Origin: Candidatus Microgenomates bacterium
Lineage (GTDB): Bacteria > Patescibacteriota > Microgenomatia > UBA1406 > HO2-37-13b
Length of the DNA: 64,000 nt
Direction: 5' to 3'
Assembly: GCA_025449735.1 (NCBI GenBank)
Contig: JANWIV010000001.1
Location: 12,654-76,653, forward strand
The notes under the pieces were generated by a model. The model was not told the origin of the DNA. It did not search any database and saw nothing but the letters and a program-made list of their open reading frames with translations. The stretch's first letter is position 1. Each line of letters opens with the position of its first letter. Both the position numbers and the translations under genes were made by a program. Below are positions 8,025 through 62,278 of the stretch, in pieces.

Positions 8025-10211
8025 TTACTTTTTAATACTCAGCTTTGAAAAAAATACGGCTAGATTTCGATTATCTTGATTATCTTTATATATGTTCGAC
8101 GGCCTAACATTTTTTTCAAAAATAAATGTAATTCTATTTACGCCTACTTTTAAATTTTGCTGTAAGCTAAAATGATATTTCTTTCTCTCTTTATCAAAAT
8201 TTAAATTATATGTGGGGAGACCATTGATATTGATCGTGGCTTGTTGATTATCAACGATGGTATTGGCTTCAAAATCGAGATTAATTCCAGCCTTGCGATT
8301 GGTCTTAAAAAAAATCGTCGCTACCTTATCAAGAGTCCATCGACCTTCGGGTTCGTAGGGTGCCCATCCGTAACCAAAATAAAACTGTCGCTGACTGCTC
8401 GATAATTCATCTAGGTAAAATTCCTGTCGTTTTATCATCCTATTGTACAGACTATAACCGTTATCATTTATTGACAACTCATATCCAAGCGAAATCAGTA
8501 TGTCGTTTATAGCTTCCGAATATGGCTCTTTTTGCTTTAGCACGATATTTTCCAATCCAAAAAATTCGATTGAATCAAGCATCTTATCTCTATCTAAAGT
8601 CAGATTCGATTGACTACTAGGATCAATCAGCTGAGCTAGATAACCAATAAAAGCGTCATTGCGATAATAGTCAAATACGGCTGGGTTCAATCTACCCGCA
8701 TAGACACTAAACTTTGGTTTTTTGTATATTAATTGTGTTCGTAGTGATGAAACAGCATTAAAATCACCAATGTATTGCAACCCGTCTCTTATGACAAAAG
8801 GGATCTCCATAACTGGTCCCGTCGGAGAACTTTCTAAACGATCGTATATTTTTTGTGGAATTGGTTGGAGCACTTGTCCAAAAGATGCCGTATAAGATTG
8901 GTCGATTAAAAAAATGAAAATTGCCAGAATACAAAGAGTGAAATATGTTAGTCTATCCTTAACTTTCTTATCTGCGAAGTCCTGGGCTAATAAGGCAGTC
9001 ACTATCGTCATAAGAAAGATCGCAGGGACAATAAACCGGGCCGGACTCCTTGCTAGCTGAACGTATGGAATACTATTTAGAATCTTAAAGGGCAATACTA
9101 TAAAAGTTTCATGACCGAAAATATGTAACTTTGGTCCCAGTGTCAGAATCCAAAAGCAGAGGATGACAAATAACATTGGATTGATTTTTCTTTTTATTTT
9201 AAGACTGATCTTTTTATTGAAGAAAATAACGTATAGTACCCCTAACAAGATTATTATTCCAGGATAAACTAAATTTTCAAAAGCCGGTCTTAAAGCCAAA
9301 ATTGATGACATATACTCAAGAAATTTGCCAAATACTAATCCCGTAGTTGCTGGAGTGAAAATTCCAATTAAGTCTGATGAAAATTGAATACTGTCTTTGG
9401 AAAAATGAAAGTCGATACCCTGACTTAACAAGAGGCTTCGGTAAACCTTAATAATCCATGGGTAAAGCAATATTAAGCCAAGAAATAGAATAATGAGTAA
9501 GTATTGGTATCGGCTCTTGATGAAACTTGTCAATACATTTTTGTTTGAGATTAAATAATAGCTTAGAAAAAAAGACACCATCAGTGCGAGCATCACTGTG
9601 AAATACAGATTCGTAAGAACTAATACTGCCACACTAATCGTTAGTCCAAAACTATTGATTACAATGAACTTTTTAGTTTTACTCCTGAGAACACTAATAA
9701 AAAAGAATGCTATCGCTGGAAATAAATACAAAGCTGTGTAGGTAGGATGTCCTAACCTGGCGACAACGAAAGGAGAGTAGCCATATACCAAACTCAAGAC
9801 ATAAGAGATGCCGCGCCTTATCTCAAATTGTCTCAACAATAGATACATAAAGGCACAACTGGCTACGATACCAAACATTACTATTATAGTAAAGGCATCA
9901 TGGACTGAAAAGAAAGGGCGCAGAAAAAGGAAATAAACTCCATTAATGGGTGCCACATCCTCAAGGGCAAAATTCCAACCAAATGGAAAAAGCAAGGGAG
10001 CTTCGTTAAACGGGTTACGAAGTGAAAGAATATTAAGTCTTACCGTTTCGGCCACATACTCGTACACTGGCCACTCTCCAAAAACCACTAATGTATTTGG
10101 TACTTTGAAAATTGAATAGTGCCAAATATTGAAATTAAAAATGTAGTTTAATAGTGTGTAACTGAGAAGTATTAAGAAAGGGATAGAAACTTTTTTTTTC
10201 AAAAAATTCAT
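8025..10211 (-). CDS. Polytopic membrane protein, paralog family B, with C-terminal GW..E..RW/DNR.L module (putative GT-C-like glycosyltransferase)
   Basis: 728 aa. NPFNEAPLLFPFGWNFALEDVAPINGVYFLFLRPF near the N-terminus, MEIPFVIRDGLQYIGD late in the protein, and tail GYGWAPYEPEGRW...DNRNLAVFF. Confidence 0.6.
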   Translation of the reverse strand: MNFLKKKVSIPFLILLSYTLLNYIFNFNIWHYSIFKVPNTLVVFGEWPVYEYVAETVRLNILSLRNPFNEAPLLFPFGWNFALEDVAPINGVYFLFLRPFFSVHDAFTIIVMFGIVASCAFMYLLLRQFEIRRGISYVLSLVYGYSPFVVARLGHPTYTALYLFPAIAFFFISVLRSKTKKFIVINSFGLTISVAVLVLTNLYFTVMLALMVSFFLSYYLISNKNVLTSFIKSRYQYLLIILFLGLILLYPWIIKVYRSLLLSQGIDFHFSKDSIQFSSDLIGIFTPATTGLVFGKFLEYMSSILALRPAFENLVYPGIIILLGVLYVIFFNKKISLKIKRKINPMLFVILCFWILTLGPKLHIFGHETFIVLPFKILNSIPYVQLARSPARFIVPAIFLMTIVTALLAQDFADKKVKDRLTYFTLCILAIFIFLIDQSYTASFGQVLQPIPQKIYDRLESSPTGPVMEIPFVIRDGLQYIGDFNAVSSLRTQLIYKKPKFSVYAGRLNPAVFDYYRNDAFIGYLAQLIDPSSQSNLTLDRDKMLDSIEFFGLENIVLKQKEPYSEAINDILISLGYELSINDNGYSLYNRMIKRQEFYLDELSSSQRQFYFGYGWAPYEPEGRWTLDKVATIFFKTNRKAGINLDFEANTIVDNQQATININGLPTYNLNFDKERKKYHFSLQQNLKVGVNRITFIFEKNVRPSNIYKDNQDNRNLAVFFSKLSIKK

Positions 10212-12627: not shown

Positions 12628-14415
12628 TCAGTTATTATTGTTAGCATCAACTCTTTGCCATAATGAGTAGCCATTATCCCTCATTATAAGTGTAAAGTTG
12701 AGATGTTTAAGAATGGACTCTGAATCCAAACTATACTTTTGGTAATCTCTTAAAATAGCATAGCTTATATTTTTAAATTCGAGACTTTCTTCCGCTTTGT
12801 CAAAATCAATTTCGTTTAATATTTTTGCTCGGTCCGTTGTTTTTACGTCTATTAATCTGCCAAGTGGACCAAATAAAGCATCGTTTTGAATAGTTGAGAA
12901 AGCAACCTCTGGAACTCTCCCGGCATATAAACTAAATATCGAATGTCCATGCAAGCTCATTACCCGAGTGGACCAAACGCTATTAGCAAAACCAAAATTT
13001 TTAATTCCGTCGCGAACAGTAAACGGTATTTCGAGGAGCGGTCCTTCCTGATGATGCAGTAATAAAGAGTATATTTTGGTGGGCAAAACAATTGTTTCAA
13101 CGGGAGCCGGTTTTACTGATTGATCAATAAGTACAGCAGCTAACAGCAATAAAGCTATAGTAATTTTTTTTAACCGGGTAGTTTTTTTTGTTAGATATGA
13201 TAGTACATACGCTAAAATAATTGAAAGTAGGAAAATTACCGGCGCAATAAATCTACCCGGAGCTCTTGCCATTTGAACAAATGGCAATCGGTATAAAAAT
13301 TGATATGGAAGATCAATAAACGTGGTTTTGCCAATAAATCTTAGGAATGGGCCTAATGTAAAAATGTAAAGAAATATTGAACTAGCAAAAATAGCCTTTA
13401 AAAAAAGGGGCAACTTATTTCTAATCTTAAGATACAAAATGCTTGTGCTAATTAATGCAACTCCGAGGTATGAATAAATTTCAAACCGGGGACGAAAACT
13501 CAATACATCTGACAACGGCAAGATGATGGAAGCATAAAAAGGATTGCGGACTGGCCAAAGTATACTAATCAGATCGGCTGAAAGCAAAACACTGTCAGTA
13601 ACTGGCCGAGCTTCCGCATAACCGTTAAAGTAAAGTGATTCGATAACTTTTACAACCCAAGGTAATAATAACAAGCAAGAGAACCAGACAGCCCAAACAA
13701 TATGTCTATAATTTCCTTTAACGATAGTTATAATTTTCTTTCTTTCGAAGACAAGTCCTATTGTCGTAACTAGTCCAATCATCAACCCGATCATAATCGT
13801 AAAATATAAATTTGTTAGTGGGCAAAGGGCCAGATTTACTCCAAGCAAACTCGAATACAAAAATTTTATCGACGGTCTCTTTTCTTTTGAAAGTAATATA
13901 AAAAATAAGGCCGGTAATGAAAAAAGATAAAGCGCTACATAAGTGGGATGCCCCCAGATTCGATACGAAACAAATGGAGTGAAACCGTAAACCGCTCCTG
14001 TGATAAATGACACTAATCGATCGTGATCAAGTACACGAGCCAACAAATACATACTAAAACTGGATAAAATAACACTCAGTATTACAATTAGCATAAATGC
14101 TTGATGTATTGAAAGAAACGGTCGCAATAATAAAAAGTAAAAACCATTAATCGGAGCGACATCGTCTGGGGCAAAATTCCATCCATAAGGGTTCAGTACT
14201 TCAGGTATTTCGGAGAAAGGATTTTTTAGAGAAATAATATTTTGATATACAGTCTCAGCAACAAATTCATAGACATGACTTTCCCCTTGAGCCGTTAGTA
14301 TGTCAGCTGGATCTTGATAAATAACCTGTTGCCAAATTTGACCGTAGAAAATAAAACTAATAAGTAAATATCCAAGGGTAACAATTAATATTGGGAACCA
14401 ATTAATTTTTTTCAT
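12628..14415 (-). CDS. Polytopic membrane protein, paralog family B, tail-less member
   Basis: NPFSEIPEVLNPYGWNFAPDDVAPINGFYFLLLRPF and LLEIPFTVRDGIKNFG. It ends after DNGYSLWQR, where paralogs continue into the C-terminal module. The track start at 14421 is TTG, so I prefer ATG 14415 (MKKINWFP). Confidence 0.6.
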   Translation of the reverse strand: MKKINWFPILIVTLGYLLISFIFYGQIWQQVIYQDPADILTAQGESHVYEFVAETVYQNIISLKNPFSEIPEVLNPYGWNFAPDDVAPINGFYFLLLRPFLSIHQAFMLIVILSVILSSFSMYLLARVLDHDRLVSFITGAVYGFTPFVSYRIWGHPTYVALYLFSLPALFFILLSKEKRPSIKFLYSSLLGVNLALCPLTNLYFTIMIGLMIGLVTTIGLVFERKKIITIVKGNYRHIVWAVWFSCLLLLPWVVKVIESLYFNGYAEARPVTDSVLLSADLISILWPVRNPFYASIILPLSDVLSFRPRFEIYSYLGVALISTSILYLKIRNKLPLFLKAIFASSIFLYIFTLGPFLRFIGKTTFIDLPYQFLYRLPFVQMARAPGRFIAPVIFLLSIILAYVLSYLTKKTTRLKKITIALLLLAAVLIDQSVKPAPVETIVLPTKIYSLLLHHQEGPLLEIPFTVRDGIKNFGFANSVWSTRVMSLHGHSIFSLYAGRVPEVAFSTIQNDALFGPLGRLIDVKTTDRAKILNEIDFDKAEESLEFKNISYAILRDYQKYSLDSESILKHLNFTLIMRDNGYSLWQRVDANNNN

Positions 14416-35669: not shown

Positions 35670-35756
35670 CTAACCCTTCGGGCTTCGGCCGTGAGCCCTC
35701 GGCGTGAGCGTAAGTCGAACGCTCAGCCGAACGGTTAATTGTTACTCGTACCCTTT
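35670..35756. repeat. REP-like repeat family R2, copy with a 50-nt GC-rich internal insertion
   Basis: CTAACCCTTCGGG (35670-35682) and GGTTAATTGTTACTCGtACCCTTT (35733-35756) match the reverse complement of the 54374 copy. The segment 35683-35732 between them is GC-rich and palindromic. Confidence 0.65.
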
Positions 35757-35888
35757 GATTTGAAATAAATTCTGTCAAATTTCCACCTCAACATTTACAA
35801 TTAAACGTTTAAATGTAAATGTTTAACTCAAAAAATGCAGAAATTAACTTAAGAGTACCCAACTCGAGGCTATTCTAAGTTAAATTTG

Positions 35889-39026: not shown

Positions 39027-39272
39027 AGGAAGTTTTTAAATTAGAGCATCATTGTATCATTCATCTGCAATTGTACTAAACTTTTCTTGTTTTTGTTATG
39101 CCCCTTCGCTTAATAATACCTAGCGTAGCTTTGAGTTTTATTATACATTTAAGTTTCTATAGTAGACTGATACCTATCCTGAAAGCTACGGGGGCATATA
39201 CCCATTTGTTGCAAACTCAAAGCAGAGTGGTATATAATCGTGCCAGTTCAGAAACGTTGGCGATTTTGGATC

Positions 39273-39332
39273 TGTCATCCTGAGTGAAATGAAGGATCTA
39301 ATGAGATTCTTCACCTTTGGCTCAGAATGACA
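39273..39332. repeat. TGTCAT-type double-hairpin repeat (family R1)
   Basis: tgtcatcctgagtgaaatgaaggatct aatg agattcttcacctttggctcagaatgaca. Confidence 0.8.
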
Positions 39333-39356
39333 AACTGTCAGTGAAAGTAAATTCAT

Positions 39357-45201: not shown

Positions 45202-45305
45202 TTAATATTGTACGGGTGCCAAGCCCGGAGGGACAACCCAACCGGTATGTGCGACGATTAAATAATTTTCTCGTCATCCTGATCTTGTTTCAAAATGCAG
45301 TATTT

Positions 45306-45380
45306 TGTCATTGCGAACCGACGGCACTCGGTGAAGCAATCTCTTGATTCTGAGATCGCCGCGCTTTGCTCGCGATGACA
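45306..45380. repeat. TGTCAT-type double-hairpin repeat (family R1)
   Basis: tgtcattgcgaacc...gaagcaatctc ttgattct gagatcgccgcgctttgctcgcgatgaca. A partial unit (cgtcatcctgatc) lies at 45272. Confidence 0.75.
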
Positions 45381-45402
45381 AGAAAGATAAGAGTAAGTTA
45401 TC

Positions 45403-46590
45403 ATGACAAATATTAAAACAAATTCTCCAAAGCTTGCTAAAAAATTAAACTTTTTCAAATCCGCTGGTTCTTTTGCCATGCTTGTTAAAGCAACCGCCCT
45501 TGAAGCTAAAGGAAAGCGTATTATTCATCTAGAAAGTGGCCAACCAGATTTCCCAACACCCAAGCATATCGTCAGCGCCGCCGTTGACGCCATGCACGAT
45601 GGCAAAACCAAATATACCCCACCATTAGGAATCCTGCCGCTTCGCACCGCTATCGCAAACAACTTGTCAAAAAAGTTCCAAGTCAAAGTAGAGGCAAATA
45701 ATATTGCCATCACCCCTAGTGGCAAGACGGCTATTTTTGCTGCCTTAAGCGCGGTTATTGAACCGGGTGATGAGATTATTTATCCCAATCCTGGTTTCCC
45801 CGTATATGAGACCATGATTCAATACCTGGGCGGCAAACCAATGCCAGTGCCGATTACCTCAAAAAACAATTTTAGTTTCGATATGGAAATCTTTAGAAAA
45901 AAATTCTCAAGTAAAACTAAGCTTATAATTCTCAATTCTCCTAGCAACCCAACTGGCGGCATCATTCCCAAAAGCGATTTGCAGATAATAGCGCGCATGG
46001 TGCGCGACAGCAAATGTTGGGTAATGACTGATGAGATCTATGACAATATCGTCTATGACGATAACTACCAAAGTTTTTATAGTCTGGACCATGTCCGCGA
46101 TCGTACCTTTCTCGTCAATGGCTTTTCCAAAACCTATTCAATGACTGGCTGGAGAATCGGTTATCTGGCGGCTCCCAATGGCATTATGGAAAAAATGGAT
46201 TATTTACTCACTCATATTGTCGGCTGCACTGCGAGCTTTACCCAATATGCCGCCATGACCGCAATTGAGGGATCGATGAGCGAACCAAATCATATGGTCA
46301 AAGAATTTAAAAGAAGGCGCGATTATTTTGTTGGTGCCCTAAACGAAATTCCCGGTATTCACTGTTCATTACCACAAGGCGCCTTTTATGCCTGGCCTAA
46401 TATCAAAAGTTTTAAAAAAAGCTCCTCTTGGATGGCTGACTATCTCTTAAAAGAAGCCGGAGTTGCCACCTTACCGGGGTCTGATTTTGGTAAATGGGGT
46501 GAAGGCTACCTACGTCTTTCCTTTGCCACTAGCATGGAAAACCTGGAGCAAGCGATCAAACTAATCAAAAAGGCCTTAGCCAAAATATAA
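45403..46590 (+). CDS. Class I/II (aspartate-type) PLP aminotransferase
   Basis: LESGQPDFPTP, NSPSNPTG and PLP-lysine motif SKTYSMTGWRIGY. Confidence 0.8.
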   Translation: MTNIKTNSPKLAKKLNFFKSAGSFAMLVKATALEAKGKRIIHLESGQPDFPTPKHIVSAAVDAMHDGKTKYTPPLGILPLRTAIANNLSKKFQVKVEANNIAITPSGKTAIFAALSAVIEPGDEIIYPNPGFPVYETMIQYLGGKPMPVPITSKNNFSFDMEIFRKKFSSKTKLIILNSPSNPTGGIIPKSDLQIIARMVRDSKCWVMTDEIYDNIVYDDNYQSFYSLDHVRDRTFLVNGFSKTYSMTGWRIGYLAAPNGIMEKMDYLLTHIVGCTASFTQYAAMTAIEGSMSEPNHMVKEFKRRRDYFVGALNEIPGIHCSLPQGAFYAWPNIKSFKKSSSWMADYLLKEAGVATLPGSDFGKWGEGYLRLSFATSMENLEQAIKLIKKALAKI

Positions 46591-49800: not shown

Positions 49801-49885
49801 GATAATTATGTAATATGTATTATGTAGAATGTAAAACAAGCTTAAACGCTTGGCACTCACACAGGCAAAATATCTTATAAACTCA

Positions 49886-49939
49886 TGTCATTCTGGCCCG
49901 CTTCGCCAAAGCTTCAGCGAGGCGAGCTTGACCAGAATC
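49886..49939. repeat. TGTCAT-type repeat, single unit (family R1)
   Basis: tgtcattctgg cccgcttcgccaaagcttcagcgaggcgagcttga ccagaatc. Confidence 0.65.
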
Positions 49940-50016
49940 TATTTCATTATTACCTATGCGAAGTTCATTGTAGTTTTTTTGCAATAAAATGCAACTGTTC
50001 AAAAGCGCACTTATAC

Positions 50017-50045
50017 TTGCTTTTTATATCACTTGGCGTTAGAAT
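50017..50045 (+). promoter_or_regulatory. TTGCTT-17-TAGAAT promoter, 9 nt upstream of ATG 50055
   Basis: -35-like TTGCTT at 50017-50022 and -10 TAGAAT at 50040-50045. Confidence 0.4.
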
Positions 50046-50054
50046 AAGCTATAT

Positions 50055-50792
50055 ATGACAACTCCAAATAAATTCGCCCTTTTTGATATCGATTACACCT
50101 TAACCCGGGGTGGGGGAACCACCTTTATTGAAGGGCACCGGGTGGCGCTACGTGAAGTTCTTGAGGTTGATTTGCCGGCAGACTTCGACCTGACTCCCCA
50201 TGAGGGCAAAACGGCCGCTGGTTTTTTTGTCGATGTGGCCGAAGAGCTTGGTGTAGAAAGAGAAAAAACTATAAAAAATCTAGGTAGCCTTGAGACTACT
50301 TTGACTAAATTTTGTCTAAAACATGCCGACGAGCTAGGAGTAGTTCCTATGCCTGGAGTTGAGAAATGTCTGGGCGCCATGCAAGAAGAGGGAGTCGGAC
50401 TAGGCATTCTTACTGGTAATTTCAAAGGTATCGCGCACTTAAAATTACGACTCGGTGGTATCGATGATTACTTCAGCTTTGGTGCCTACGGCGATGTCTC
50501 AGAAAACCGAGTTGATTTGGTCACCGCCGCAGAACGAGAAGCAAGTGAAGTCTATGGTACTTTTGTTCGTCGGGACCAATTTTTTATTGTAGGAGACAGT
50601 TGGCGTGATATGCAGTGCGCCCGCGAAGCCGGTATTGGCGCAATTGGTGTTGTCACCGGACCAAACAATGTCGAGGACCTCGATGAAGCTGGAGCTGATT
50701 TGGTAATTCCCACTTTAGAATCATATCGAGCAATTATAAATTTTACCCGAGGACCCGAAAATGCGTACTCCCGAAATGAGAGAAGAAATTGA
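50055..50792 (+). CDS. HAD-superfamily hydrolase
   Basis: Motif I ALFDIDYTLT and motif III VGDSWRDMQCA. GC is higher than in the glycan island. Confidence 0.7.
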   Translation: MTTPNKFALFDIDYTLTRGGGTTFIEGHRVALREVLEVDLPADFDLTPHEGKTAAGFFVDVAEELGVEREKTIKNLGSLETTLTKFCLKHADELGVVPMPGVEKCLGAMQEEGVGLGILTGNFKGIAHLKLRLGGIDDYFSFGAYGDVSENRVDLVTAAEREASEVYGTFVRRDQFFIVGDSWRDMQCAREAGIGAIGVVTGPNNVEDLDEAGADLVIPTLESYRAIINFTRGPENAYSRNERRN

Positions 50793-53479: not shown

Positions 53480-53642
53480 AAAATTATTTAAGAATTAATA
53501 AGTAATGCGGATTATAGCAATAGTCCAAACCAAAAGTCAATATTACAAAGTAATATTTTAATTATCAAACCGTAGTATTATTACTTTTTTGTATTACCAT
53601 AACAATCTAAATGCTATAAATATATTTTTCTCCAACCCTCTT

Positions 53643-53676
53643 CCAACCCTTCGGGTTGAAGTGAGCTTGAACCCTT
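53643..53676. repeat. REP-like repeat family R2, diverged copy
   Basis: ccaacccttcgggttgaagtgagcttgaaccctt, with hairpin caaccc-ttc-gggttg. It shares AACCCTTCGGGTT and GAACCCTT blocks with the copies at 35670 and 54374. Confidence 0.6.
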
Positions 53677-53686
53677 CGTTTTTTAA

Positions 53687-54364: not shown

Positions 54365-54373
54365 AATAAATTA

Positions 54374-54424
54374 AAGGGTTCGAGTAACAATTAACCCGAA
54401 GGGTTAGAAGTTACTCGAACCCTT
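54374..54424. repeat. REP-like repeat family R2, full palindromic copy
   Basis: aagggttcgagtaac / aattaacccgaagggttagaa / gttactcgaaccctt. Perfect 15-bp arms, and the 21-nt loop contains a nested aaccc-gaa-gggtt hairpin. Confidence 0.75.
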
Positions 54425-54483
54425 TCTCTTTAGTTACATAACAAGTCAATAAAACTGTTCAAATTTATAATAATTTTAAAATG

Positions 54484-57939: not shown

Positions 57940-58917
57940 ATGACAAAAATCATTGTCATTACCGGACCTACCGCGACTGGCAAAACTGCCTTTGCGCTAA
58001 AGCTTGCCAAGCGCATTAACGGTGAGCTAATCAGCGCCGACTCTAGACAGATTTATAAAGGTCTTGATATTGTGACTGGCAAAGATATCCCCAAAAAGGC
58101 AGAATTCTATATTGATAAAAAACTTTCAATTATATCCTCAAAAAATGTCCGCAGTAGTAAAATGGTTATGGGATATTATTTGGCAAATTCTATTCCAATT
58201 TGGCTTTATGATGTCGTCTCACTACGGGAATATTTTTCCTCGTATGATTTCGCTCGTATGGCGCGAGAAGTAATTACTGATATTTTAACTCGCGACAAAA
58301 CTCCAATCGTTATCGGTGGTAGCTACCTATATATCAAACACTTAATTTATGGCCTTGATACTGATGGCATTCCTCCAAATTGGATTGAAAGAGAAAAGTT
58401 AAAAGATTCTTCAGTCACAGAACTTTTTGAAATATTAAAGTCGATTGATCTCAAAACTGCTTCTGTTCTCAATCAATCAGACAAAAACAATCCCCATCGC
58501 TTAATGAGAAAGATTGAACTGGCAGAATACCATCGTCATTCTGGTAAGCCGAAGGCGCATCCAGAATCTCAAGGGGATCCTGGACAGGCCAGGATGACCT
58601 ATCCACTAGGTCAATTTATTGGGCTTAAATTCAAAAACAAAGAAGCCCTTGACCAATTAATTAGGCATAGAGTAGAGGAGCGAATAAAAGCAGGAGCAAT
58701 TGAAGAAATTAAGCAATTACTTGAGAAAGGTTACTCCAAATCTGATCCAGGACTTTGCACTATCGGAGCGAAACAAATTATTGATTATTTATCGGGCAAA
58801 ACAACCTTTGATGAAATGGAATCTTTATGGACCACTGCTGAGACCCAATATGCCGGTCGCCAAATGACCTTTATGAAAACCGACCAGAATATAAAATGGC
58901 AGATTGTAAAAAAATAA
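57940..58917 (+). CDS. miaA: tRNA dimethylallyltransferase
   Basis: P-loop ITGPTATGKTAFAL, ISADSRQIYKGLDIVTGK, and GGSYLYIKHLIYG. A repeat-derived segment lies at 58534-58599. Confidence 0.85.
   Translation: MTKIIVITGPTATGKTAFALKLAKRINGELISADSRQIYKGLDIVTGKDIPKKAEFYIDKKLSIISSKNVRSSKMVMGYYLANSIPIWLYDVVSLREYFSSYDFARMAREVITDILTRDKTPIVIGGSYLYIKHLIYGLDTDGIPPNWIEREKLKDSSVTELFEILKSIDLKTASVLNQSDKNNPHRLMRKIELAEYHRHSGKPKAHPESQGDPGQARMTYPLGQFIGLKFKNKEALDQLIRHRVEERIKAGAIEEIKQLLEKGYSKSDPGLCTIGAKQIIDYLSGKTTFDEMESLWTTAETQYAGRQMTFMKTDQNIKWQIVKK
58534..58599. repeat. TGTCAT-type double-hairpin repeat (family R1) lying in frame inside miaA
   Basis: cgtcattctgg taagccgaaggcgca tccagaatc tcaagg ggatcctgg acagg ccaggatgac. 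It is translated as RHSGKPKAHPESQGDPGQARMT. Confidence 0.65.
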
Positions 58918-58939: not shown

Positions 58940-59015
58940 AAAAAATAGGTACTACCGATGGGCAAGTCGACGCGAGTCGACTTGAGGGCAGTTGAGCCCC
59001 ATCGGTAGATTTTTG
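58940..59015. terminator. Bidirectional intrinsic terminator between convergent miaA and the GC-rich secreted-protein gene
   Basis: Stem ctaccgatggg (58952-58962) / cccatcggtag (58998-59008), with a nested aagtcgac-gcga-gtcgactt hairpin. It is flanked by an A-run (58940-58946) and a T-run (59010-59014). Confidence 0.6.
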
Positions 59016-59043: not shown

Positions 59044-60165
59044 TCAGTAGGCGAGTTCGCTTCCCACGCTCAGTGGATTGGTCGGCACTAGGTGCTCAGT
59101 CACTCCAAAGAACGAGGCGGACCCGCCATACTCCAGGAAGATGTCCGAGACCTTAGTGAATCCGATGCCCTTCATTTGATCGACGAATTCCCAGTTTTGT
59201 GAGTTGCCCGGCGTTGATGCAGCACAGAAACTGGGATTGCCAATACACCGCCAGATCTTGTGATAGGTGGTGTAGGTTGACTCATGCCACCAGAGATCGC
59301 CATCCAGAAAGGTTTCCCAGTCTGCTGGCCAAGTGCAGGTCGGTGCTGAACTAGTCGCATTCGTGGCCATGATGATCAGCGAGTGCTGGAGCCCGGGATC
59401 CGGGCACTCCCAGCTGATATCGGTGACGACGCAGTTGTTTGCAAACACCTCAAACTCTCCGCCTGGCTGATAGACAATCCAGTTGGAGAAAGTGTTTTCC
59501 TCACTCCCGTAGAACTTCATCCAGATGTTATATTGCGGTGGAGGCATACCGGCTTCGATGATTCCGATGTAGCCGGTCGCGTTTCCTGACAACCACTGGG
59601 ATACGTCCATTCCTCGATCGTTTCCACAGTACCATTCGAAGTTACCTTGATAACCAGTATCTGCCGGTACTGTTACGAGATATTCCCAGTACGGATTGGG
59701 AATGCCCTCGTACGGTCGGTTGTTATGGCACGGTGCGTTGTCAGTGAGACACCTGTAGAGGGCCACCGAATGCATGATCGGTGTGTTGAAATCGATTTCG
59801 GTCGAGGGTTCGACCGGATCACCGAATCCCGCATCAAATGGAACAAAGACACACGATGGCGTCCCGTGAGGGGGCGCCCCATTGCCGAAAAAGAGATGAG
59901 CCATCGGGATATTGAGTCCCCCATAGGCCCACGCCCAGGAGCAATCCTCCACCGTACAGTTGGTGTTGAAGAACTCCAATGGGTTAATGTCATGCTCACA
60001 GTATGGTGGAATCGTCTGCCAGCCAACAGCCCACCAGTCGGTCCAACCGTTCTCCTCGACGAAAAACTCCACATCGGGAGCGGCGGCAACGGTTCTGGCA
60101 TTGAGCCCGAACAGGGCGGCGATGACGATGAGCAGCGTTGTGATGCGAAGGATGTTTCGCGTCAT
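59044..60165 (-). CDS. Secreted Cys/Trp-rich protein with two internally homologous halves, on a GC-rich island
   Basis: About 55% GC versus about 35% around it. ATG 60165 is preceded by AGGAGG, while the track start 60186 is GTG. Signal-like ILRITTLLIVIAALFGLNARTVAAAP. LEFFNTNCTVEDCSW resembles FEVFANNCVVTDISW. Confidence 0.65.
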   Translation of the reverse strand: MTRNILRITTLLIVIAALFGLNARTVAAAPDVEFFVEENGWTDWWAVGWQTIPPYCEHDINPLEFFNTNCTVEDCSWAWAYGGLNIPMAHLFFGNGAPPHGTPSCVFVPFDAGFGDPVEPSTEIDFNTPIMHSVALYRCLTDNAPCHNNRPYEGIPNPYWEYLVTVPADTGYQGNFEWYCGNDRGMDVSQWLSGNATGYIGIIEAGMPPPQYNIWMKFYGSEENTFSNWIVYQPGGEFEVFANNCVVTDISWECPDPGLQHSLIIMATNATSSAPTCTWPADWETFLDGDLWWHESTYTTYHKIWRCIGNPSFCAASTPGNSQNWEFVDQMKGIGFTKVSDIFLEYGGSASFFGVTEHLVPTNPLSVGSELAY

Positions 60166-60446
60166 GGTTTGAGTGCCTCCTAGCACTCGGATTTTTTGTA
60201 CATGGAGTTAGACCATTCACTCATATGAATTTCAGTTTTGTTTATAGCTCTCCTGTATTGTAAAGGCGCGTATGAATCCAAAACGGCCCCACGCGGATGC
60301 AGACCATTAGATTCAAAGATGAGTAATTATAGCATAGCAACGCTCTTTTTGATAGTAAATTGATATTATAAAAAAACTATTATGCTTTGGCAAATATCGA
60401 CATCGTGAGGTGAAAAAATTTTAGACCAAAAGGAATATTTAAGAAT

Positions 60447-61531: not shown

Positions 61532-61993
61532 ATGGCGCAAAACAAAAGTGTTATGTCCGCACTGAGCTCACTCGAAACTACTCTTGATCAGTATCTTGTC
61601 AAAAAAGCCCCTGCAATCCCGACAGCTTGGAAAGACGTCATTGTCAAAGTGGCGCCATGGCTCTCGCTACTTATGGTAATTGTATCAATCCCGGCAATTT
61701 TAGTGCTCTTTGGTATAACCGCATTTGTCTTACCTTTTAGTATGTTCGCCGGACCCTATGCACCAGCGGGGATTTCAATCGCCGTCATTTTAATGATCGC
61801 AACAATCGCGCTTGAAGCGCTCGCCATCCCAGGACTTTTCAAACGAAGTCGTCAGGGTTGGAACTTCGTCTTTTGGTCAGCCTTGGTCGGGGCATTATCA
61901 AATATAATTTCTCTCAACATCGGCGGCTTTATAATCGGCACATTGCTATCTCTATATATTCTTTTCCAAGTCAAAAGCTACTATAAAGCTTGA
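61532..61993 (+). CDS. Hypothetical membrane protein
   Basis: 153 aa with 3-4 hydrophobic helices. A consensus TTGACA-17-TAGAAT promoter ends 6 nt before the ATG. Confidence 0.55.
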   Translation: MAQNKSVMSALSSLETTLDQYLVKKAPAIPTAWKDVIVKVAPWLSLLMVIVSIPAILVLFGITAFVLPFSMFAGPYAPAGISIAVILMIATIALEALAIPGLFKRSRQGWNFVFWSALVGALSNIISLNIGGFIIGTLLSLYILFQVKSYYKA

Positions 61994-62006: not shown

Positions 62007-62100
62007 AGTCATCCTGAGCATGTCTAAGGCGAAGGATCTTTGAACAATGAGATTCTCACGTCGTCATCCGCAAGTTGTCGGACTCCTCCTCAGAATGACA
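62007..62100. repeat. TGTCAT-type double-hairpin repeat (family R1), long variant
   Basis: agtcatcctgagcatgtctaaggcgaaggatct ... agattctcacg...cctcctcagaatgaca. Confidence 0.75.
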
Positions 62101-62278
62101 GGGCTTAACTGATTTTATCTGAGTCTACTGATTGCAATTGAATATAACTGGATCTACTAGTCTCGTGCTATAATAGCCTTATATTTCTGCACCTGCCTTA
62201 AGACTTCAAATAAGTCAAGGCAAGCACCTTGACACTACGGATAGCACCCAAAAAAAATCGCTAAGGAGGCGACAGCTC

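Follow-up and report, generated by a model that had tools for sequence, protein, structure and literature searches.

How does a palindromic DNA repeat come to lie, in frame, within the gene of a tRNA-modification enzyme, and what does the enzyme look like afterwards? The question is raised by a stretch of 64,000 nt (positions 12,654 to 76,653 of contig JANWIV010000001.1, GenBank assembly GCA_025449735.1; hereafter the window) from a Candidatus Microgenomates bacterium. Its miaA gene, encoding tRNA dimethylallyltransferase, contains a 66-nt element composed of two inverted hairpin units. We consider this element very likely to be a head-to-head (HH) dimer of the CGTC-tagged repetitive extragenic palindromes (REPs), which is read through in frame and tolerated in a linker loop of the protein.

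The element in miaA and its relatives in the window

The element begins with the first base of codon 199 and ends with the third base of codon 220. It therefore covers exactly 22 codons, and its frame contains neither a stop nor a frameshift. Written out by parts, the sequence is CGTCATTCTGG-taagccgaaggcgcat-CCAGAATC-tcaaggg-GATCCTGG-acagg-CCAGGATGAC-c. The initial annotation had described a complete two-unit copy of a repeat at this place, read through without disruption of the frame; its coordinates, sequence and peptide are right, as indicated by the sequence itself and by a full-length match to a profile of the family. As listed in Table 1, both units have stems of 7 perfect pairs starting with AT. 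The loop of the right unit measures 5 nt, while that of the left unit has 16 nt with an inner GCC/GGC mini-stem in the DNA fold. This left loop belongs to a subfamily, GGTAAG...GCATCC, that is also present in the copies L112, L020, L002 and L126 from other genomes. The tag of the right unit, GACC, reads GGTC on the opposite strand and is degenerate at its first base. Behind the left stem stands a C (CAGAAT-C), a base fixed by the search pattern used for the family, and the bases that follow vary, with no CCA consensus apparent. Folding of the element gives -28.9 kcal/mol as RNA (z = -3.9 against shuffles) and -14.1 kcal/mol as DNA (z = -3.6).

Table 1. Positions, strands and supporting evidence of the features discussed, in coordinates of the window
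Feature	Position	Strand	Evidence or detail
miaA, tRNA dimethylallyltransferase, 325 aa, intact	57940-58917	+	open reading frame (ORF) list, Pfam, homologues, AlphaFold model
CGTC-type REP dimer, tags outward (HH dimer), 66 nt, codons 199-220, peptide RHSGKPKAHPESQGDPGQARMT	58534-58599	+	
Left REP unit	58534-58568	+	sequence, DNA fold
Left unit, tag CGTC	58534-58537	+	
Left unit, arm ATTCTGG	58538-58544	+	
Left unit, arm CCAGAAT	58561-58567	+	
Left unit, tail C	58568	+	
Spacer TCAAGGG between the two units	58569-58575	+	sequence
Right REP unit, inverted	58576-58599	+	sequence
Right unit, G	58576	+	
Right unit, arm ATCCTGG	58577-58583	+	
Right unit, arm CCAGGAT (after loop ACAGG)	58589-58595	+	
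Right unit, tag GACC	58596-58599	+	
Intergenic dimer of the same family, between divergent genes	39272-39333	-	nhmmer E 7.5e-11
Intergenic variant dimer (GTCATTGCGA...TCGCGATGAC) and adjacent half unit	45271-45379		nhmmer E 0.022
Intergenic single unit (TGTCATTCTGG...CCAGAATC)	49886-49944	+	nhmmer E 0.034
Intergenic long-loop dimer, downstream of ORF 61532-61993	62008-62101	-	nhmmer E 1.3e-7
RAYT-like Y1 (HUH) transposase gene, 220 aa	53687-54349	-	motifs HWHFLL, RYIHLNHV

The host gene appears normal in all other respects. The Pfam family IPPT matches residues 37-314 (E 4.2e-47), that is, on both sides of the element, and the protein conforms at all 46 invariant columns of an alignment of 34 MiaA sequences. 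Its closest relatives, at about 50% identity, belong to Candidatus Roizmanbacteria and other Microgenomates; a search of 5.8 billion proteins returned no MiaA more than 51% identical to it. From the 34-sequence alignment an AlphaFold model was built whose mean predicted local distance difference test score (pLDDT) is 89.9 and which superimposes on the E. coli MiaA-tRNA structure 2zm5 with a TM score of 0.72-0.76. The DNA of the window is low in G+C (0.32-0.47), and the element, at 0.58 vs 0.37 for the rest of miaA, differs from it in composition.

The miaA copy is one of several. The motif GTCATYCTG occurs 8 times in the window, with 0.67 expected, a number reached in 0 of 100 shuffles, and all 8 matches fall in the five repeat loci of Table 1. 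An nhmmer profile made from 129 copies in other genomes matches the miaA copy over its full length (E 9.9e-10), second in the window only to the copy at 39272; of the roughly 66 bases of this profile, 25 were fixed by the pattern used to gather the foreign copies. The right unit, GATCCTGGACAGGCCAGGATGAC, was not forced by that pattern and has a single mismatch to GATCCTGGACAAGCCAGGATGAC, a form seen in 11 of the foreign copies. Over its whole length the element shares 84% identity with copy L112 from a metagenome-assembled genome (MAG) of Levyibacteriota. A generic repeat finder run on the whole window did not report the family, because its loops and spacers vary in length.

Tags point outward in the miaA copy as well as in those at 39272, 62008 and 45305, the one within 45271-45379 lying upstream of an aminotransferase gene. 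Since the four other copies are intergenic, miaA holds the only in-gene copy in 64 kb. It is open in three of the six frames, compared with one for the copy at 39272 and none for that at 62008, where all six are stopped. Such a difference between an open frame in the gene and stops in intergenic copies is as expected if only open, whole-codon copies survive in genes. Small ORFs of 56-73 aa exist in the window only by running through intergenic copies, at 39186-39356 (-), 45258-45479 (-) and 49885-50058 (+), with the peptides CHSEPKVKNLIRSFISLRMT, CHREQSAAISESRDCFTECRRFAMT and MSFWPASPKLQRGELDQN; gene callers would likely annotate these as hypothetical proteins. Five repeat-encoded peptides had no Pfam or NCBIfam match even at E <= 10, and no Rfam family matched the window at the gathering threshold; the element does not correspond to any RNA family described there.

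The family in other genomes and its classification

Foreign copies were collected by scanning one genome per species with GTCATTCTG-N6-36-CAGAATC-N8-38-CAGGATGAC, a pattern that itself required the tags-outside arrangement. The family occupies at least 120 loci, and the species-representative genomes that carry it span many phyla. Its layout is Y-GTCATTCTG-hairpin-CAGAATC-spacer-GATCCTG-hairpin-CAGGATGAC-R, with two inverted hairpin units and (C/T)GTC at the outer ends. Among the 127 distinct foreign dimers listed, GTCAT is preceded by C in 60 and by T in 56. The first stem pair beyond the core is Watson-Crick in 117 of these 127, where base frequencies predict 45 (A-T 56, C-G 31, G-C 29), and the second in 94, with a further 14 G-U (G-T) pairs. 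This covariation implies that the structure, and not the sequence alone, is maintained. With 6 fixed and 2 covarying pairs the stem of the family amounts to 8 bp, and in the commonest foreign form a 9-nt interval leaves a 5-nt loop after the two extra pairs. Long structured loops of 15-26 nt are frequent, that of the miaA left unit among them, and the spacers vary in both length and sequence. The outer arms form inverted repeats in which 9-10 of the 12 terminal bases are complementary. A miniature inverted-repeat transposable element would also have a target-site duplication and a related full-length insertion sequence; no such parent sequence was identified for the family.

Long open frames hold 24 of the 131 foreign copies listed. 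For ten of these the host protein was confirmed with Pfam, and in each of them the domain match spans the element: a LepA-type GTPase (Kazan), PheT (Saccharibacteria), MurB, CysS (Gottesmanbacteria), a CCA-adding enzyme (Levyibacteriota), FemAB, MutS, Ddl, YchF and Tgt. Most of the hosts are bacteria of the candidate phyla radiation (CPR), and the commonest frame of the in-gene copies yields peptides starting with RHSG. One Gottesmanbacteria contig (L063, JACPZF010000001.1) has an ORF of more than 2,200 codons with two in-frame dimers about 70 residues apart, encoding VILASEERARPGSVSDSGPASSRGEQARMT and VILGTPSLSRGTPESKTDSGQARMT. Near-identical dimers (GTCATTCTGAACTTGTTTCAGAATC...GATCCTGAAATAAATTCAGGATGAC) were observed at L014, L021, L023, L028, L034, L038, L091 and other loci, in MAGs labelled Gastranaerophilales, Gammaproteobacteria, Bacteroidota and CPR. 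Such uniformity across phyla could stem from horizontal spread, from strong constraint, or from MAGs that were wrongly binned or labelled.

According to Di Nocera, De Gregorio & Rocco 2013 (BMC Genomics 14:522; PMC3733652), prokaryotic REPs fall into GTAG- and CGTC-tagged superfamilies. CGTC REPs have an unpaired terminal CGTC (or TGTC/CCTC), a stem of 8-9 bp that starts with two complementary A/T positions, a loop of 4-5 nt (longer as exceptions) and an unpaired 3-nt tail with the consensus CCA. They mostly form HH dimers with a variable spacer, were found in five phyla, and 'apparently lack a dedicated transposase'. Although mainly intergenic, some intragenic dimers 'encode 20 to 30 amino acids'. 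The same authors assign the R. conorii elements RPE-6 and RPE-4 to CGTC-1 and CGTC-4, respectively, and Neisseria dRS3 to CGTC-1, and their Additional file 3 gives CGTC-1 peptides such as RHSGGGRNL, VIPAKAGI...IPASAGMT and RHAGGGRHLGREEIRSRQEPPEIPASAGMT; RHAGGGRHLG...IPASAGMT is also among the peptides of their intragenic dimers.

The miaA element agrees with this definition in its tag, its stem starting with AT, its HH arrangement and its distribution, and partly in loop length and tail. It was therefore filed as a CGTC-type REP HH dimer, its place among families 1-4 being assigned by description. CGTC-1 is the closest in character: a (C/T)GTC tag, an ATTC...GAAT stem of about 8 bp and, in the commonest form, a loop of about 5 nt; mostly intergenic HH dimers, some of them in frame and encoding 20-30 aa, with no linked transposase; and the same frames, yielding RHSG..., VI(L/P)..., ...MT and ...DD/ND peptides. 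Differences also exist. The stem interior is ATTCTGR here, whereas that of CGTC-1, so far as the published peptides VIPAKAGI and SFPRKRES imply it, is of the ATTCCCGC type; many of the present copies, the miaA left unit included, have structured loops of 15-26 nt; and the hosts are CPR bacteria and other phyla outside the 2013 survey.

The initial annotation had been reminded of the Rickettsia palindromic elements (RPEs). This comparison is supported by the anatomy of the CGTC REPs and the published placing of RPE-4 and RPE-6 among them (PMC3733652), together with the similarity of the encoded peptides. RPE-1 and its relatives (Ogata et al. 2000, Science 290:347) are palindromic repeats of about 150 bp, going by the summary in PMC10969869. 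On the strength of that summary, they too lie in frame in unrelated housekeeping genes, including those of tRNA-modification enzymes, and encode a short segment compatible with the protein fold. They differ, within the limits of the same source, in length (about 150 bp vs 66 bp built of two REP units here) and in effect, as an RPE adds a segment while here most of the native loop is replaced, with a net gain of 7-10 aa. The REPINs of the REP-associated tyrosine transposase (RAYT) system, which are made of GTAG REPs (Bertels & Rainey 2011, PMC3116915), are likewise dispersed in multiple copies, consist of two inverted REP hairpins with a short spacer and can fold into one long hairpin; in contrast to them, the tag here is CGTC and not GTAG. 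In-frame read-through of CGTC REP or RPE-like palindromes in housekeeping genes is thus already described, in 2000 and 2013. Within the library of papers searched, no report of this repeat in CPR bacteria or in miaA came up, and a search with the literal repeat strings returned only primers.

No transposase could be linked to the CGTC-type family, either in this analysis or in the literature. The window contains a RAYT-like gene 4 kb upstream of miaA (Table 1), the product of which matches Pfam Y1_Tnp (E 8e-7) and, with 38.8 bits, lies under the 80-bit cut-off of NCBIfam REP_Tyr_transpos. It is flanked, at 53630-53680 and 54373-54425, by inverted hairpin repeats of about 37 nt with the core AACCCTTCGGGTT, which belong to a different family, and a third hairpin with this core lies 18 kb away at 35672-35761. 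The gene has more than 1,500 homologues of about 221 aa, of which the few that are assigned to a named source come from CPR bacteria (Levybacteria, Paceibacterota, Patescibacteria). In three other CPR genomes the homologues have their own lineage-specific hairpins at their flanks, with no CGTC dimers within 20 kb; conversely, 860 kb of loci carrying the CGTC repeat contained no homologue of the gene. In view of these flanking hairpins and homologue contexts, the gene was rejected as the mobiliser on present evidence; with its AACCCTTCGGGTT hairpins it is a second REP-like system, separate from the miaA repeat. Carriage by phages was rejected as well, as the dimer pattern had 0 matches in 2.9 million viral contigs.

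A replaced linker in MiaA and the explanations for it

The element lies between the motifs RKIEIA and FIGLRF, in the most variable part of MiaA in the 34-orthologue alignment and the most variable in length across 120 orthologues. Element-free linkers among these 120 typically have 21-25 residues. That of the window MiaA has 32, of which 22 are encoded by the repeat and about 10 are native, and that of the orthologue P0010 has 30, with about 8 native; compared with B. halodurans MiaA (2qgn), the window linker is about 6 residues longer. The net gain is thus about 7-10 residues and not 22, which means that the repeat stands in for most of the native linker. This agrees with the caveat in the initial annotation that the element may have replaced native codons rather than simply adding residues, and the alignment of orthologues leads to the same result.

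The initial annotation had also placed the segment where MiaA proteins have a conserved (T/S)GKP. The SGKP of the peptide is not such a motif. Retention of an ancestral motif was rejected because TCT GGT AAG is part of the GGTAAG...GCATCC repeat subfamily; the same codons are found in copies outside miaA (L112 and L020), and RHSGKP is likewise encoded by the repeat copy in Gottesmanbacteria CysS.

In the AlphaFold model, the first three repeat codons contain the end of helix 185-201; coil then extends over residues 202-222, up to a strand at 223-230. Mean pLDDT falls to 54 at residues 201-210 and 65 at 211-220, with values below 50 at 206-211, while the rest of the model is confident. The repeat-encoded peptide is therefore predicted to be a disordered surface loop of low model confidence that joins helix and strand. 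A second loop of MiaA may also accept such elements. The first variable loop (after GKDIP, about columns 70-165 of the alignment) has repeat-like peptides in some orthologues, namely VIASAAKNLS in P0024, SRAKRSGVEGS in P0030 and a tandem peptide repeat in P0003.

The same linker is occupied in other MiaAs. L001 (P0010) and L002 (P0013) have full dimers that start with CGT CAT TCT GG in the same frame, 3-4 codons after IEI. L126 (P0033) has a single unit of the GGTAAG...GCATCC subfamily, the dimer of L003 (P0016) lies in a different frame and follows a CGTCATTCA vestige at a distance of a few codons, and L127 (P0057) has the collapsed remnant CGTCATCCTGAATCGCATGACG. The MiaAs carrying an element at the site are Roizmanbacteria-like and roughly 50% identical, and they fall in at least four places of a rough neighbour-joining tree without support values. 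No element is present in P0002 and P0004, the two closest orthologues. In the nearest of the element-free ones, L124 (P0002), the linker has CGACGGGAATCCCGACGTTACGTCGGGAG, a small palindrome beside a GGGAATCC string that resembles the 3' arm of a CGTC-1-type REP, and this may be a decayed remnant. In their non-repeat parts, the window miaA and L001 are 56% identical in nucleotides and 38% at third codon positions, as compared with 22 of 23 identical nucleotides in the right repeat units. Such a combination suggests either that repeats reached a permissive or preferred site independently and fairly recently, or that the repeat DNA itself is subject to selection or conversion.

The proposed course of events is as follows. 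CGTC REPs are short, non-coding, multi-copy repeats that spread, now or formerly, within bacterial chromosomes, and one copy occupies the stretch of miaA for the loop joining helix 185-201 to strand 223-230. This copy would have arrived by insertion, with the native loop trimmed afterwards. Read-through would be possible with exactly 22 codons, no in-frame stop and a hypervariable, disordered surface linker as the place of arrival. The outcome would be a MiaA with most of its native linker exchanged for 22 repeat-encoded residues, and the peptide is most likely a tolerated, presumably neutral passenger rather than a functional module.

Several points weigh against this explanation. Several distant orthologues carry an element at this site, to within one codon, and the near-identity of the right units (22 of 23) in genes that are 56% identical, and 38% at third positions, does not fit neutral vertical descent; there may be some targeting, or selection on the DNA or RNA hairpin, at the miaA site. 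No direct repeat, and so no target-site duplication, is visible in the flanks of the miaA copies or of the 127 foreign copies. The best miaA homologue is just 51% identical, so that insertion is inferred, and this comparison does not separate insertion followed by deletion from outright replacement. Expression of the peptide is assumed.

A single ancient insertion into the miaA of a Roizmanbacteria ancestor, passed on vertically and lost or decayed in most lineages, would account for the identical frame, the agreement in position to within one codon, the GGTAAG...GCATCC left loop common to the window copy, L002 and L126, the placing of P0013/P0020 and P0033 in one clade of the neighbour-joining tree, and the remnant-like sequences in P0057. 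We regard it as unlikely. The carriers are scattered over at least four places of that rough tree without support values, third codon positions are near saturation (38%) while the REP units remain near consensus, the left unit of L001 is different, and the copy of L003 is in another frame.

Rather improbable, too, is that the element has been exapted, with the repeat or its RNA or DNA hairpins serving a function in miaA and being kept by selection. Candidate roles are a flexible linker, in which SGKP lies 2-4 residues downstream of the (S/T)GK of other MiaAs, a translational pause, or a binding site. Occupation of the same site in P0001, P0010, P0013/P0020 and P0033, with a remnant in P0057, would be explained in this way, as would repeat nucleotides that are far better conserved than the gene (22/23 vs 56%), the G-U pairs in the stems and the strong fold. 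However, in about 110 of the 120 orthologues the linker is unrelated and free of palindromes; the repeat, RHSGKP included, is also found in unrelated proteins and between genes; the prediction is of a disordered loop; and the monomeric and collapsed forms look like decay.

If the segment were native coding sequence that is palindromic by chance, as the initial annotation had considered, orthologues should exist with the same peptide and no palindromes. Instead, the palindrome-free orthologues have unrelated peptides, and those with a similar peptide at the site carry palindromes too. Coincidence can appeal to a peptide that starts near the (S/T)GK of other MiaAs and to the ordinary total length of the protein; it is effectively refuted by the profile match (E 1e-9), the outlying G+C, the fold z of -3.9 and the 84% identity to the Levyibacteriota copy L112. 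Insertions in rRNA genes are a known trait of CPR bacteria, but removal of the element before or after translation, as with an intron or intein, so that the mature protein lacks it, is highly improbable, as positions 58450-58700 have no Rfam match even at E <= 1, the 22 residues contain no intein motifs, and the exact 3n span and open frame fit read-through and not splicing, with intergenic copies often carrying stops.

A read-through CGTC REP dimer in a tolerant loop thus remains the explanation we favour. Going beyond it, CGTC REP dimers could still be active in CPR bacteria, repeatedly entering, or being selected as hairpins at, the same loop sites of essential genes. This extension is doubtful, and so is its corollary that they act at miaA, cysS, pheT, murB, ddl, mutS and other genes as a general source of replacement loops. 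Two observations speak for it: the family is near-uniform across phyla while absent from 2.9 million viral contigs, and it is 96% conserved in genes with saturated synonymous sites. Taken together, they would imply unrecognised, widely conserved machinery that mobilises or maintains the repeat.

Neighbouring features and biological meaning

Two other features of the window were recorded. A 380-aa ORF at 59044-60186 (-) converges on miaA, from which it is separated by a long hairpin (about 58950-59010). It has a G+C content of 0.54 against a background of about 0.37, is rich in Trp, starts with a signal-peptide-like N-terminus and has no Pfam match; it is possibly horizontally acquired. Between 4004 and 21958, within a glycosyltransferase cluster, lie seven or eight ORFs of 600-770 aa, most of them with hydrophobic, membrane-like N-termini. 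The four of these that were tested had no Pfam match, and a 110-nt stretch is common to 9877-9986 and 14081-14190 with 73% identity.

For annotation, peptides of the types RHSG...ARMT, VIL...QDD and CHSE...LRMT, whether in CPR proteins or in small hypothetical ORFs, are to be understood as read-through of the repeat. Such REP-derived peptides should be masked in alignments and domain models and not be taken for conserved motifs. For the biology of these bacteria, the element extends protein-coding palindromes, first noted in Rickettsia, to another lineage with small genomes. A single loop of MiaA offers a natural experiment, in which the site holds a dimer, a monomer, a collapsed remnant or nothing, depending on the lineage. 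That a near-consensus repeat sits in a saturated host gene makes it more pressing to ask how CGTC REPs, for which no transposase is known, move or persist. What deserves following is that the repeat recurs at one site and stays conserved within saturated genes.

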